A DNA stretch of 64,000 bases from Gammaproteobacteria bacterium (GTDB lineage: Bacteria; Pseudomonadota; Gammaproteobacteria; Steroidobacterales; Foliamicaceae). The stretch covers positions 184,860 through 248,859 of the forward strand of contig OZ243929.1 of assembly GCA_965213995.1 (NCBI GenBank). The letters are read 5' to 3'. Numbering within the stretch: position 1 is the first letter of the stretch; every line of letters begins with the position of its first letter. The notes beneath the pieces are model-generated. The model was given only the letters and a program-made list of their open reading frames with translations. It searched no databases and was not told the DNA's origin. Made by a program: the position numbers and the translations under genes. This document shows, piece by piece, positions 14,334 through 38,860 of the stretch.

Positions 14334-14938
14334 GGAAGCCTGATATCCAAGTGCCCCGAAGCTCCGAACTCCACGACCGCGCCCGCATCCGACGTGCTCT
14401 CCAGCTTTAGCGAGAAGGGCGTGAATTCGCCTTCGGGCAGCAAAATAATCTGGGGCGGCAAAGAAGGCTGCGGCAAACGGGACGGGGCCGCGCGCCCGTT
14501 GATCCTGAGCTCGAATTCAAGCCGGGGCGGCCACTTGCGGGGGGCCAGCGCGCCCCGCTGGCTCAAGGGAATCCACACAAGCTCCGGAAAGGATTCGCCT
14601 TCGCTTTCGGACGGCAGAAGCTCGTGATAGGAATAGCCCTGCGAATCAAACCGCAGGCCCAGCACCCTGCCTTGCAGGCGGCTTTCGTCCGCCGCTAGGC
14701 GCAGCGCGGCCGAGAGCCTGCGCGCTTCGCGCTCGACCCCGCTGCCTGAGGCGCCCGCTGAGAGCACCGCCATGCCGGTGAGCAGGCCGATCAGCGCCAG
14801 CACCACCAGCATCTCGATGAGGGTGAAGCCGCGCGGCGAAGGAGGCCATGCGGGCTTTGGCGGGGCTTCGGCCCGAATGCGCTTCGCGCCCTCTATCCTT
14901 GCATGGAAACGCTTGTTCCGGACGGCGGCCCGCGCCAT
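14330..14938 (-). CDS. gspH: T2SS minor pseudopilin H
   Basis: G^FTLIEMLVV; PQIILLPEGEFTPF. Confidence 0.88.
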   Translation of the reverse strand: MARAAVRNKRFHARIEGAKRIRAEAPPKPAWPPSPRGFTLIEMLVVLALIGLLTGMAVLSAGASGSGVEREARRLSAALRLAADESRLQGRVLGLRFDSQGYSYHELLPSESEGESFPELVWIPLSQRGALAPRKWPPRLEFELRINGRAAPSRLPQPSLPPQIILLPEGEFTPFSLKLESTSDAGAVVEFGASGHLDIRLP

Positions 14939-14943
14939 ATCGC

Positions 14944-15480
14944 TCACGGCTGCTGGTCGAGATTCCAGTTGCCTATGTCCTGGTCCTGCCCCTCGCCGCC
15001 TGCCTGGCCGTCCCGGCCTAGCGTGTAGATATCCACCTCGCCGTTGCGGCCCGGGTTGCTGTAGAGATAGGGACGGTTCCAAGGATCCATGGGCAGGCGC
15101 CGCATGTAGCCGCCTTGGGGCCAGCGCAGATCAGGGTCGTTGGGGCGCTCCGCCAGCAGTTGCAACCCCTCGGCATTGCTTGGATAGCGGAAATGATCCA
15201 GGCGGAAGATATCCACAGCGGCTTCGATTGCCTGGATATCGGCGCGGGCGCGGGTCATTCGCGCATCATCCACGCGGCTGACGTAAACACCGGTGGCGAT
15301 CGATGCCAGGATTCCGATGATGGCCAGCACCACCAGGATTTCCATGAGCGTGAACCCGCGATCCCGCACGCCGCGCCGACGGTCGCAACGCTTCCTGGCA
15401 AAGAGGGCGTTAAGACTTATCCGAGGACGCGGCGCCCTCGTTCCCGGCATTCGGTTCGACATATTTTCCGGCAGCGCCAC
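14944..15480 (-). CDS. gspG: T2SS major pseudopilin G (start uncertain)
   Basis: G^FTLMEILVV, YPSNAEGL, DPWNRPY.Y..PG, GRDGQ.GGEG...DIGNW. Confidence 0.93.
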   Translation of the reverse strand: MALPENMSNRMPGTRAPRPRISLNALFARKRCDRRRGVRDRGFTLMEILVVLAIIGILASIATGVYVSRVDDARMTRARADIQAIEAAVDIFRLDHFRYPSNAEGLQLLAERPNDPDLRWPQGGYMRRLPMDPWNRPYLYSNPGRNGEVDIYTLGRDGQAGGEGQDQDIGNWNLDQQP

Positions 15481-15749
15481 CGTTCAATCATGCCAGAGCG
15501 GGATGAAAGACGCTATTGCCAGCCTTGTCCAACCACAAATGAGCCTAATAAGGGGGCGCGGTTTCCAGCGGGAGGCAAGCCTGAAGCATCGGTTTTTGGG
15601 ATCATCGGAGGATGATCGTGACGTTGCGGACCGAGCGGATAGGGCCGGTGGGGACCGGGATTTAGCCTACGCCTTCTTGGGGCTGTCGCGGGCGCAGATG
15701 GCGCGTCAGCACTAGCCCGCATATTGCGCCAATCTGCGCCAGCTAAAGT

Positions 15750-15852
15750 CCTTTTCTTGCCCCTGCCTCGCGGGAGCGTCTGGGGCAGGATGCCCCAGCC
15801 GAGCCCCAGGGATGGGTTTATGCGTCTCCCGCGAGGCAGGGGCAAGAAAAGG
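15750..15852. repeat. MITE internal palindrome, perfect 27-bp arms
   Basis: CCTTTTCTTGCCCCTGCCTCGCGGGAG (15750-15776) and its exact reverse complement (15826-15852) around the core GGCAGGATGCC...ATGGGTTTATGCGT. Confidence 0.9.
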
Positions 15853-16050
15853 GCGAGGGCGAGCGCCGGCGGCGGCATCGCGCGAGCGCGCCGCCGGCGC
15901 CGCAGCGCTCCCTACGGAATCACCTTGCTGGGCGCGCTTATCAATGCGGGCCGCATTGCCGAAGCCCCCGGAAAGCTGTTGCGGGAATCGCCGCCGCCGG
16001 ACCGGATAGAGGACTTGCGCTCCCTGGGGGATCCCGGCGTGAAAGCGGTA

Positions 16051-16848
16051 TCAGGACGGTCCCTGATAGGGCGAATCGGGGCAGTAGTTCGTGGTGTCCG
16101 AGCGCCATTTCCGCTGCTCCGCGCCGTATGCATCGTCGTAGCCGTCGTCGCCTTTATTGACCCACACCCGATTTCCGTCCACTAATCTGTACTGAGGGTG
16201 CCAAGGGCCTTCCTCCGAGCAAGTACACATCCCCCAGGCCAGACCGCCTTGGGGGTGGGGCATGTAGTACTTGCCGCCAGGGGTATTGTCCGGCGAGGCG
16301 CAACTCTCGCCGGGAGTGTCTCGAACGGTGATGTCAACCGATCGCATGTTCGGATTGATGGTGTAGCCCGCGCCGCGCATGAGGACGACCCGGACCACAC
16401 TGCTGCCGGTGATGAGGAGGTCGTCCGGGAAACAGGGCGAGCCGGTGCCGCCGAATGAATTCAGTTCGGCCCAGCCCGTCATGTTGGACGTATAGCTCAC
16501 CTGGGAGCGCTGTCGGTAAACAGCGGGAGTTCTTTCGATATAGGCCGGCACGCCATAGTTTTTAAACCGGTCATGGCCGGAGACGGTGTAGGCGAAGATA
16601 TTGACTCTCACGCCTTGGGGGTTGCTACTGGCCCTTATCTGGACCGGCAGCCCATTGCTAGTGTCGCATCTTCCAACCGGGGATTCATTGACGACGCTGA
16701 ATCCGGAGACTATCCTCAAGCTGATTTCCGGCAGCACCTGCGCCATCGTCGGCATTGCTATTCCCATCGTGACCGCAAGCGCGGCGGCTGATAGACGGGC
16801 GATGCGTCTCCGAGGCGATGAAAAGCGCACGGTTATCTGATGTTTCAT
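16051..16848 (-). CDS. Secreted hypothetical protein, Calx-beta/Ig-like with Cys-rich tail
   Basis: GGAGG RBS before MKHQ; signal peptide; VVLMRGAGYTI...VDITVRD resembles Calx-beta-like ends; several Cys. Family assignment is tentative. Confidence 0.6.
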   Translation of the reverse strand: MKHQITVRFSSPRRRIARLSAAALAVTMGIAMPTMAQVLPEISLRIVSGFSVVNESPVGRCDTSNGLPVQIRASSNPQGVRVNIFAYTVSGHDRFKNYGVPAYIERTPAVYRQRSQVSYTSNMTGWAELNSFGGTGSPCFPDDLLITGSSVVRVVLMRGAGYTINPNMRSVDITVRDTPGESCASPDNTPGGKYYMPHPQGGLAWGMCTCSEEGPWHPQYRLVDGNRVWVNKGDDGYDDAYGAEQRKWRSDTTNYCPDSPYQGPS

Positions 16849-16890
16849 GGACACCTCCATTTCAGCGGCTTAGACCTATAGCGCCACCTT

Positions 16891-16922
16891 ACTATACCCC
16901 CCCCCCCCCCCCCGATTTGCAA
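16891..16922 (-). promoter_or_regulatory. Sigma70-like promoter with a G17 tract in the spacer (candidate phase-variable)
   Basis: Minus strand reads TTGCAA-ATC-G17-TATAGT; C run at 16897-16913; spacer 20 nt. Confidence 0.7.
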
Positions 16923-17027
16923 ATCGAGGGGCGCGGGGAAGGGCGGGCGGGGGCAAGCAAAATCCTGCGCGGCATCCACACCCCTTGGTGCAATATGCGG
17001 GTTAAGCCTCGCCTATAATTTCGGGGC

Positions 17028-17777
17028 GTGTCCAACGATTCCAACCTTTTCTCGCTCGATGGCGAAATCGCGCTTGTCACCGGGGCCTCACGGGGCATCG
17101 GCGCCGAAATCGCCAGCCAGTTGGCCGCCGCCGGAGCAGAGGTGATCGGCACCGCGACCACGCCCGGGGGCGCCGGGGGAATCGCCCGCCGCCTAGGCGG
17201 CGGGCATGCCGGGAAAGTCCTTGATGTGGAGTCCGGCGAAAGCGTCCGGGCGCTGATAACCGACCTAGGGGGCCAAGCGCCCACCATCCTAGTGAACAAC
17301 GCGGGAATCACCCGCGACAATCTGCTGCTGCGCATGAAACCGCAGGATTGGCAGCAAGTGATCAATACCAATCTCAGTTCCGCCTACCGCCTGTGCAAGA
17401 CCGTTCTTCGCGGCATGCTCAAGGCGCGCCGCGGGCGCATCATCAACCTGTCGTCGGTGGTCGGCGTGGCGGGCGCCGCGGGGCAGGGCAATTACGCGGC
17501 TGCGAAGGCCGGCTTGCTGGGCTTTACCCGGGCGCTGGCGCTGGAAGTGGCCGGGCGCGGCATTACGGTCAACGCCATCGCGCCGGGCTATATCGAAACG
17601 GACATGACGGCCAGCGTGCCGGCGGCGCGGCGGAAAGCCATGATCGGGAGCATCCCGGCGGGGCGGGCGGGAACGCCGTTGGACGTGGCTGCCGCCGCCG
17701 TTTTTCTGGCTTCGCCGGCGGCGGCCTATGTGACCGGCGCCACCCTGCACGTGAATGGCGGCTTGTGGATGGGCTGA
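17028..17777 (+). CDS. fabG: 3-oxoacyl-ACP reductase
   Basis: TGASRGIG, NNAGITRD, YAAAK; upstream of acpP. Confidence 0.95.
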   Translation: MSNDSNLFSLDGEIALVTGASRGIGAEIASQLAAAGAEVIGTATTPGGAGGIARRLGGGHAGKVLDVESGESVRALITDLGGQAPTILVNNAGITRDNLLLRMKPQDWQQVINTNLSSAYRLCKTVLRGMLKARRGRIINLSSVVGVAGAAGQGNYAAAKAGLLGFTRALALEVAGRGITVNAIAPGYIETDMTASVPAARRKAMIGSIPAGRAGTPLDVAAAAVFLASPAAAYVTGATLHVNGGLWMG

Positions 17778-38699: not shown

Positions 38700-38860
38700 C
38701 ATGCATATTGCATCAAGGGGGTATGGAGGCTGGGCAGGATTTTGCTTAGCCCTCGCCATTCCCCGCTCCCCTCTTCCGGGAGACGCATGAACCCGTCCAT
38801 GGGGCTTGCTCCGGCATCCTGCCTCCGATACTCCCTGAAGAGGGGAGCGGGGAACGGCTT
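38700..38860. repeat. MITE copy between ccmE and ccmF, without cargo
   Basis: End GCATATTGCATCAAGGGG..GCAGGATTTTGC 38703-38745 directly followed by a palindrome with 18-bp arms 38759-38776/38837-38854 and the shared core in reverse orientation. Confidence 0.8.

Follow-up and report, generated by a model that had tools for sequence, protein, structure and literature searches.

When a gene is enclosed by inverted repeats, have the repeats moved the gene, or do they merely bound it? This question is raised by the spacer between gspG and fabG in a gammaproteobacterial genome, within a window of 64,000 nucleotides (positions 184860-248859 of the complete, 2.48-Mb source genome, here called G000; L-numbers denote loci in other genomes, and X-numbers public sequencing runs). 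The spacer holds a segment of 1286 bp (15716-17001) with inverted ends, between which lie one gene for a secreted protein and its own promoter (coding sequence 16051-16848, hexamers TTGCAA and TATAGT). In the original prediction, made from the letters of the window, this segment was described as a MITE (a miniature transposable element with inverted repeats) with cargo, a transposase-free element that captures and moves the gene together with a phase-variable promoter. Comparison with other genomes points to another history: the stretch 15521-17008 is probably a lineage-specific mosaic of three nested layers, an insertion sequence (IS), a MITE and a gene cassette, lodged in a conserved gspG-fabG spacer. 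The MITE would most likely have served as a landing pad for the gene or have been a bystander, and would not have been its vehicle.

The limits of the insert were set by comparison with the two closest relatives, G010 (flanks 90-94% identical) and G019 (88-91%). Both have an empty site, GCTA-TCGCC-TATAAT, in which window position 15520 is directly joined to 17014 via a single TCGCC. In the window this pentamer stands on both sides of the insert, with one difference in the left copy (Table 1); in a variant strain, about 3% diverged and represented by runs X6 and X10, a T>C difference at 15517 gives TCGCC in both copies, a perfect duplication. The empty site and the 5-bp target duplication therefore define the insert as 15521-17008 (1,488 bp) and not as 15716-17001; the empty gspG-fabG site for which the original prediction had called was thus found in G010 and G019, but it is bounded by the ends of the IS insert, not by those of the MITE. 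Since the insertion is shared with the variant strain and absent from G010 and G019, it is older than the split of the strains and younger than the split from these two relatives. The gspG gene adjoins fabG in all 22 genomes of the genus that were searched, G000 included, with spacers of about 66-303 bp in the other 21. The absence of fabD, which had been expected to precede fabG, is therefore ancestral and unrelated to the element.

The left part of the insert (15521-15711) has a terminal repeat, the start of a transposase gene and, as described above, a 5-bp duplication typical of the family, which together identify an IS of the rve type (PF00665). Intact copies of such an IS are present in G011 (for example L063 911-2585; approximately 1,674 bp), where six copies had identical search scores and four were compared. 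Their ends read AGCCTTGTCCAATGAG... and ...GGATTGCGCT, with subterminal motifs ATGAGCCTGA, and 5-bp duplications were present at all four (GAAAT, AAAAC, GTCCC and CTGTC, with flanks read by eye). Relative to this 1.67-kb IS, the window sequence matches IS positions 1-117 at 73% identity (over 120 nt), followed, after an internal deletion, by positions 294-320 at 93% (27 nt), whereupon the MITE begins at CTAG. The GTG codon and those for VTLRTER represent the transposase start, and a related peptide of 63 residues (G000 2088577) matches the N-terminus of proteins of approximately 420 residues, several of them with PF00665 (37 matches). The IS in the window lacks the body of the transposase and a clear right end, and is therefore a remnant. 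To the right of the MITE, GGGTTAAGCC weakly matches the right ends of the IS copies in G011 (GGATTGCGCT) and at L002 (GGACTACGCT), at about 7 of 10 positions when both are merged. No repeat copies of 15521-15711 were found in G000, and an interpretation of this segment as a structured RNA or a repeat was rejected, as it is non-repeated there and proved to be an IS end. Another solo IS end was observed in G041 (L021 1501-1632), where a left-end copy of 82% identity, not accompanied by a transposase, stands upstream of a ubiA-like gene.

The MITE that follows was recognised by its ends, a 20-nt inverted pair (15713-15732 and 16985-17004) with 90% complementarity and a 16-nt core (CCCGCATATTGCGCCA and TGGTGCAATATGCGGG) matching at 15 of 16 positions, and by its interior. 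More than 20 other copies in G000 match the left 150 nt at 92-97% identity, and alignment of full copies revealed a modular body made up of a left end, a hairpin module, a variable middle and a right-end module. In the cargo-free partial relative at 38700-38860 (minus strand), hairpin and right end are joined without interruption (hairpin-GGCGAGGGCTAAGCAAAATCC-right end), while in the 1286-bp segment this junction is split, with GGGCGAGGGC (15851-15860) and AAGCAAAATCC (16954-16964) about 1.1 kb apart. The left part ends at GGGCGAGGGCGAGCG, the right part restarts at GGCGGGGGCAAGCAAAATCC, and the two sum to one MITE's worth of sequence; it is therefore the interior, and not long-range pairing of the ends, that makes the pair one element. 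As far as anatomy is concerned, the original prediction was accurate with respect to the inverted ends, the cargo-free copy with its unbroken junction, the single secreted-protein gene with a promoter of its own, and the flanks (CTAG and TTAA) that form no exact duplication. The segment 15716-17001 shares with mobile insertion cassettes (MICs) the feature of inverted ends around a passenger gene without a transposase. A target duplication is not present at its ends, and no second copy of the unit was found in G000. Moreover, the IS sequence to the left of the MITE (which reaches about IS position 336) and that to the right (the last few bases) are non-contiguous, and the structure therefore cannot have arisen by the unit simply inserting into the IS.

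The ends belong to an abundant family, with the end CCCGCATATTGCACCAA (ends begin CCCGCATAT..CACCAA). A 17-nt end motif was found, at up to three mismatches, 228 times in G000 (105 left-facing and 123 right-facing), relative to approximately 4.7 occurrences expected from base composition. Pairs of adjacent inward-facing ends number 47 and span 101-486 bp (modal lengths 241, about 290 and 313-329 bp), and no transposase-type open reading frame (ORF) lies inside them. Identical 4-bp flanks were present in 27 of the 47 pairs (CTAG in 18, TTAA in three, and the non-palindromic TTAG in two, CTGG in two, CTAA in one and CTAT in one), and the six non-palindromic cases show these to be true 4-bp duplications of a YTAR target. 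Terminal inverted repeats, small size, high copy number, lack of a transposase and target duplication are thus combined in one family, and as judged from ends and targets its signature is that of a MITE of the IS5 type, a YTAR target with a 4-bp duplication being what we take to be the habit of the IS5 family. An autonomous partner was not found in G000, where PF01609 gave three matches, PF13358 stayed below the cut-off and PF13359 gave none, and where no transposase lies between any inward-facing pair of ends. Two candidates were rejected: the only near-complete IS5-like IS found, approximately 0.82 kb long and flanked by CTAG duplications (G000 2140431-2141253), has different ends (GGTCGTGTTAACAC), and a truncated IS5-like copy (G000 1353081-1353872) merely abuts a MITE right end and an apparent tRNA gene. 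In a scan of 14800-17300, Rfam gave only sub-threshold microRNA models on the MITE hairpin, and these were dismissed as meaningless.

Matches to the end motif also occur in other genomes, with 18 in G010, 28 (4 exact) in G041, 96 in G045, 1 in G043 and 0 in G042; those of G045 are almost all of the variant CCCGCATATCTCACCAA, many of them paired about 240 bp apart. By these motif matches, the end family crosses genus borders, into distantly related genomes. Among the matches listed for G010, G041, G043 and G045, no inward pair with both ends at two mismatches or fewer stood out at IS-like spacing, and neither there nor in G000 was a cognate autonomous IS sharing the MITE ends found; G042 has no ends. 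Inward pairs in G000 were also examined for an excess of longer, potentially cargo-bearing spans. After pairs of up to 500 bp had been set aside, 126 unpaired ends remained, and relative to random placement of these, long inward pairs were not enriched (500-1300 bp, 2 versus 1.2 expected, P = 0.34; 500-2000 bp, 4 versus 2.2, P = 0.17; 500-5000 bp, 9 versus 6.1, P = 0.15). A second cargo candidate (G000:C1:1599790-1601607, L065 1491-3308; 1,818 bp with a 420-amino-acid ORF and flanks TTAA and CTAG) lent no support to recurrent capture; its break lies in the hairpin rather than at the module junction. That site is a variable hotspot, in which G010 and G019 hold different genes (a 426-amino-acid ORF, and a 341-amino-acid ORF resembling a cytosine DNA methyltransferase by eye).

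The sequence that splits the MITE is a self-contained cassette, single-copy in G000. It had no match in 19 of 20 other genomes of the genus that were searched, and G010 contained only relatives with 31-33% identity. Homologues of its protein are encoded at ten loci in six other genomes; a protein-profile scan of metagenomes produced 59 pattern matches, none of which was confirmed. MITE ends do not surround the gene at L001-L005, L009 and L010, and end-motif matches (3 mismatches) at L006-L008 do not bracket it. At L001, in G041 (fabG and fabF 67-68% identical to those of the window), window positions 15893-16910 are present at 96.7% identity. Here the cassette is fused, via the 9-nt GGCGCCGCA that occurs in the window at both 15096-15104 and 15896-15904, to a 58-nt fragment of gspG and then to a fragment of gspH, the gspG fragment having its best match in G000 (93%, versus 88% for G010 and G019). 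These fragments indicate that the G041 copy is a decayed piece of a window-like chromosome, and therefore neither an independent insertion nor a delivery by the MITE. On the promoter side the copy is joined to the start of a vapC-like gene (by eye), where a different IS made a 16-bp duplication. Its surroundings (L001 4445-5925, 7100-8240 and 8530-10382) comprise this IS, with HTH and rve_3 domains, an AT-rich stretch, a Fic-domain gene and two secreted-looking ORFs, one of which has a poly-Pro start like that of a gene at G000 940168.

In G042, a genome with housekeeping genes 65-74% identical at the nucleotide level, locus L002 contains the cassette at 86% identity over 15957-16945, together with the GC palindrome and with the same two boundaries as in the window. 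Both boundaries abut fragments of the rve-type IS, not MITE sequence: positions 129-170 are inverted on the 3' side, and the right end (1618-1675) lies about 10 nt from the 5' boundary. In G045, L006-L008 are three copies, 99.8-99.97% identical, of a 3.6-kb element of the IS66 family (L006 3543-7151), with a PF03050 transposase, a 17-nt terminal repeat (16 of 17 matching), a D12-methylase-like ORF and a homologue of the secreted protein as passenger. Eight-bp duplications (AGAAATCC and CTGCAAAT) could be read at two of the three copies, the third being less clear. On these alignments, two vehicles of the gene family are demonstrable: a fragment of chromosome, which reached G041, and, in G045, a transporter IS of the IS66 type.

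A plausible sequence of events can be proposed for the three layers. An rve-type IS would first have transposed into the spacer with a 5-bp duplication of TCGCC; all that survives of it would be the leftmost ~190 bp and, perhaps, a few bases at the other end. A copy of the abundant MITE would then have come to lie within the dead IS, and the MITE now replaces almost all of it. The mismatched flanks of the MITE and the non-contiguity of the IS on its two sides imply that the IS interior was lost next to the MITE; two MITE copies, at CTAG and at TTAA near the IS end, may have recombined, or a single MITE may have caused a deletion beside itself. Finally, the cassette would have interrupted the MITE at the junction of the hairpin and right-end modules. 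On the left side of the cassette, 12 of 14 bases agree between the MITE interior, which reads GGCGGAGGCATAGC in common variants, and the cassette end, GGCGGCGGCATCGC, a sequence that L002 has as well; on the right side, MITE and cassette have GGCGG in common. Microhomologies also mark other joins in this GC-rich region, with 9 nt at the deletion in G041 and 8 nt at an 814-bp deletion in the variant strain. It is therefore favoured that incoming DNA recombined illegitimately into a MITE already resident; most likely, the cassette entered by such microhomology-assisted recombination after horizontal transfer, with GGCGGNGGCATNGC on one side and GGCGG on the other.

Several observations weigh against this nested mosaic. 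With both ends of the MITE intact and a family that seems to have been active recently (many copies 92-97% identical), mobilisation of the unit in trans is conceivable in principle. Unequal flanks are found at 20 of the 47 ordinary MITE pairs, one of which has exactly CTAG and TTAA, so that the flanks are compatible with past transposition of the unit. The gene family does ride transposable elements elsewhere, as the IS66-type element of G045 demonstrates. The right end of the IS is not demonstrable, with 7-10 weakly matching bases at most. The 14-nt likeness between MITE interior and cassette end may instead go back to a MITE-borne copy ancestral to the cassette of L002. As for the promoter tract described below, its lengths were taken from assemblies alone, and contigs from the sequencing runs break at it.

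The first alternative keeps the unit of the original prediction: the 1,286-bp segment would be a mobile insertion cassette (MITE plus captured gene), moved whole into the IS by a transposase acting in trans, and a later deletion would have taken IS sequence and one copy of the duplication. We consider this unlikely. It would account for the intactness of both ends and for a single gene being surrounded by sequence that adds up to one MITE, and it agrees with an abundant family of similar copies, with related ends in the distant genomes G045, G041 and G010, and with a homologue that is a proven passenger of a three-copy IS66-type element. The cargo form, however, is single-copy, CTAG and TTAA form no duplication and the IS sequences on the two sides are non-contiguous; no transposase lies between inward-facing ends in G000, where the IS5-like IS has other ends; long end pairs are not in excess, and no second cargo copy found support; L001 and L002 lack MITE ends, the G041 copy having come with chromosomal flanks; and the junction 26-mer had 0 matches in JGI metagenome contigs. 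Hence, of the claim that a transposase-free element captures and moves the gene, the part concerning enclosure stands (the gene is bounded by inverted repeats, without a transposase), and the part concerning capture and movement is not supported, given a single copy, no duplication and an empty site that fits the IS ends. Nor did the gene move with MITE ends in the only traceable transfer, that to G041, which carried gspG and gspH fragments instead.

A bolder reading, to which we attach a similarly low probability, is that of a dedicated contingency cassette that circulates horizontally, always with its own G/C-tract switch, and passes between unrelated bacteria that live together, lodged in transposable elements, be it a trans-mobilisable MITE or an IS66-type transporter IS; the window unit would then be a functional mobile insertion cassette after one hop. 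It also seems quite improbable that the two ends stem from separate MITE copies, inserted in the IS at a CTAG and, close to the right end, at a TTAA, which would stand on either side of the gene as in a small composite element and would each have lost their inner part as the cassette replaced the IS interior. Different flanks at the two ends are expected for two insertions, the adjoining IS sequences are about 1.3 kb apart in the intact IS, and elements of the MITE type can mobilise DNA between two copies, as reported for the elements treated in PMC4133298. The retained parts are, however, complementary to within ~10-40 nt of a single element, and they meet at a module junction that is uninterrupted in 38700-38860, a coincidence for two independent truncations; MITE sequence is not duplicated, nor do two complete copies flank the cargo. 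Very improbable, finally, is an assembly artefact, whether a chimeric join at repeats or an artificial homopolymer: the region is repeat-rich, short-read contigs break at the tract and depth in the 16836-16899 bin is 55 in X5 and 0 in X6, but the tract is found at the same place in three genomes, and independent contigs agree with the window.

This agreement comes from contigs of X3 and X5, two independent short-read samples of which X5 belongs to another study, with 0 differences over 15300-15741, 15838-15950, 15921-16227, 16367-16746 and 16941-17200. The first, second and last of these stretches cover the gspG-IS-MITE, MITE-cassette and MITE-fabG joins, respectively, and the structure is therefore not an assembly artefact. 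In the variant strain (X6 and X10) the IS-MITE junction is as in the window. With its 814-bp deletion (16162-16975), this strain has lost the promoter, two thirds of the gene and, for the most part, the right portion of the MITE; the gene is therefore dispensable.

The promoter of the cassette gene contains a run of G between its two hexamers. The hexamers were assigned by eye; the promoter scan accepts spacers of 16-18 nt only, and the 20-nt spacer of the window was not called. The hexamers are identical in all three, and 17 G in the window, 14 G in L001 and 11 G in L002 give spacers of 20, 16 and 13 nt, respectively. In distant homologues, a C tract, at about 5937-5965 in L003-L009, lies a few codons after the start and is read as prolines in the signal peptide, with lengths of 11 (L003), 9 (L004), 9 (L005), 20 (L006-L008) and 16 (L009). 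Altogether, a G/C tract was present in the promoter or the 5' coding region at all eight homologous loci inspected, from six genomes (L010 and L012-L014 lie outside these eight), and the switch is therefore a trait of the family. A homopolymer between the -35 and -10 hexamers and a tract length that varies among orthologues are both marks of a contingency locus, and on this basis the poly-G tract may act as a slipped-strand on/off switch, as the original prediction had proposed. The window copy, with 17 G and a 20-nt spacer, is predicted to be OFF, and tracts of 13-15 G, giving spacers of 16-18 nt, are predicted to be ON. G000 as a whole contains 49 G/C runs of 10-22 nt versus only 76 of 7-9 nt, a bimodal distribution; many of the long runs are situated just upstream of or just inside the 5' ends of genes, and ten lie at 131-161 kb, shortly before the window. 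Several long G/C tracts were seen inside or beside copies of the MITE or hairpin repeats (G000:C1:1266867-1266935, 2034879-2034888, 1670882-1670897 and 560857-560873), and one 17-nt tract is located at the MITE module junction equivalent to the cassette site in the window.

Table 1. Features of the insert, its chromosomal flanks and the cargo-free MITE relative in the window.
Feature	Position	Strand	Basis or remarks
gspG (type II secretion major pseudopilin)	14944..15480	-	left chromosomal flank; NCBIfam TIGR01710, E 2e-49
Target duplication, left copy TTGCC, 5 bp	15516..15520		empty-site comparison with G010 and G019
rve-type (PF00665) IS remnant	15521..15711	+	left terminal repeat AGCCTTGTCCAA, two ATGAGCCT subterminal motifs, ribosome-binding site, GTG at 15618
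CTAG, left MITE flank	15712..15715		commonest flank of the MITE family
MITE left part: terminal inverted repeat 15716-15732, hairpin module 15750-15852 (27-nt arms, 100% complementary)	15716..15865	+	repeat comparison
GC-rich palindrome downstream of the gene, possible terminator stem; microhomology zone with MITE interior (GGCGGNGGCATNGC)	15863..15900	-	predicted hairpin
Gene cassette, ~1.08 kb	15866..~16941	-	single-copy in G000; boundaries as in L002
Coding sequence, 265-amino-acid secreted protein	16051..16848	-	signal-peptide-like N-terminus, Calx-beta-like sandwich at residues 38-180, Cys-containing C-terminal part
Ribosome-binding site GGAGG	16854-16858	-	upstream of the coding sequence
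Promoter with putative switch: -35 TTGCAA 16917-16922; ATC + 17 G 16897-16916 (tract 16897-16913); -10 TATAGT 16891-16896	16891..16922	-	sequence
MITE right part, including terminal inverted repeat 16985-17001	16942..17001	+	repeat comparison
TTAAGCC: MITE flank on the right (TTAA); the IS right end may contribute its last bases	17002..17008		
Target duplication, right copy TCGCC, 5 bp, TATAAT directly after	17009..17013		empty-site comparison
fabG	17028..17777	+	right chromosomal flank; NCBIfam NF004197, E 5e-98
Cargo-free partial MITE relative: hairpin module and right-end module, no left end	38700..38860	-	alignment

The N-terminus of the 265-amino-acid protein is basic, then hydrophobic, and ends in PTMA-QV, a signal peptide by eye. 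No Pfam family matched the protein at E <= 1, and 23 homologues were found among 5.8 billion clusters. An AlphaFold model based on 20 of the 24 sequences (the window protein and 19 of the 23 homologues) had a mean pLDDT of 60 and showed residues 38-180 as a beta sandwich, the best fold matches of which were to Calx-beta domains at a marginal Z of 8.2 (VIA-align, root-mean-square deviation 3.0-3.3 over 101-102 residues); this Z falls in the range of common beta-sandwich matches, and VIA-align yielded nothing beyond generic matches of Calx-beta or Ig-like type. Foldseek gave no match in the PDB at E <= 0.001, and the ESM Atlas yielded no usable match. Relative to L001 the gene has nine synonymous and four non-synonymous differences (pN/pS 0.14), and relative to L002 a pN/pS of 0.64. 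A GC hairpin is predicted downstream of the gene, although the region as a whole folds no better than shuffled sequences do (z = 0.22), and the terminator scan found none on the strand of the cassette gene. On the other side of the insert (17009-17019), the IS inserted just upstream of a TATAAT box that precedes fabG. The native -35 region of this putative fabG promoter has been displaced by 1.5 kb, and the promoter scan called no hybrid promoter.

The locus illustrates how repeats, dead ISs and incoming genes can pile up at one intergenic site, and how an empty site in relatives can tell a gene bounded by inverted repeats from a gene moved by them. As a whole, it is an ordinary nested mosaic of known element types. 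The expectation of an undescribed system was not sustained, as passenger cassettes bounded by inverted repeats, transporter ISs and MITE-mobilised segments are all in print in the sources cited here (PMC3129680, PMC5444012, PMC4133298). MICs and transporter ISs were defined by the authors of ISfinder and ISsaga (PMC3129680), and a qnrS2 cassette with a MITE structure has been described in the Aeromonas plasmid pAC3 (PMC5444012). Going by the definition in the former source, the window unit resembles these elements in having inverted ends of IS type around a passenger gene and no transposase, ends that also occur in short MITEs; unlike MICs as defined there, it comes without a target duplication, second copy or cognate IS found, and, nested in a dead IS, it may never have moved as a unit. 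TIMEs are MITE-driven, mosaic, non-autonomous transposons of the Tn3 family, which have been trapped experimentally while transposing (PMC4133298). With them the window unit shares the form of a small transposase-free element with inverted repeats and a foreign gene module; whereas TIMEs, by that account, use two copies or 38-bp ends of Tn3 type and make 5-6-bp duplications, the window has one element's worth of IS5-like ends (4-bp YTAR).

The IS66-type transporter IS of G045 offers a closer comparison, since its passenger is a homologue of the secreted protein of the window and has a 20-nt C tract of its own. It is a bona fide mobile element, with a transposase, a terminal repeat, three copies and duplications, hallmarks that the window unit does not have. 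The small secreted beta-sandwich family has thus moved between distantly related uncultured bacteria, at least once as the passenger of an active IS66-type element, and it appears to use two designs of G/C switch, one in the promoter and one in the first codons. Homopolymer-based transcriptional phase variation is known from the fim promoters of Bordetella. In Neisseria, the poly-C tract of fetA and the tract of porA lie between the -35 and -10 hexamers and likewise underlie transcriptional phase variation (PMC5320596). The G/C tract of the window sets the promoter spacer in the manner described there for fetA and porA, with lengths of 17, 14 and 11 in orthologues; unlike the Neisseria genes, it belongs to an uncultured high-GC bacterium and to a family of which distant members place the tract in the 5' coding region, and switching is here a prediction, one that would extend the idea of the contingency locus from pathogens to environmental or symbiotic high-GC bacteria.

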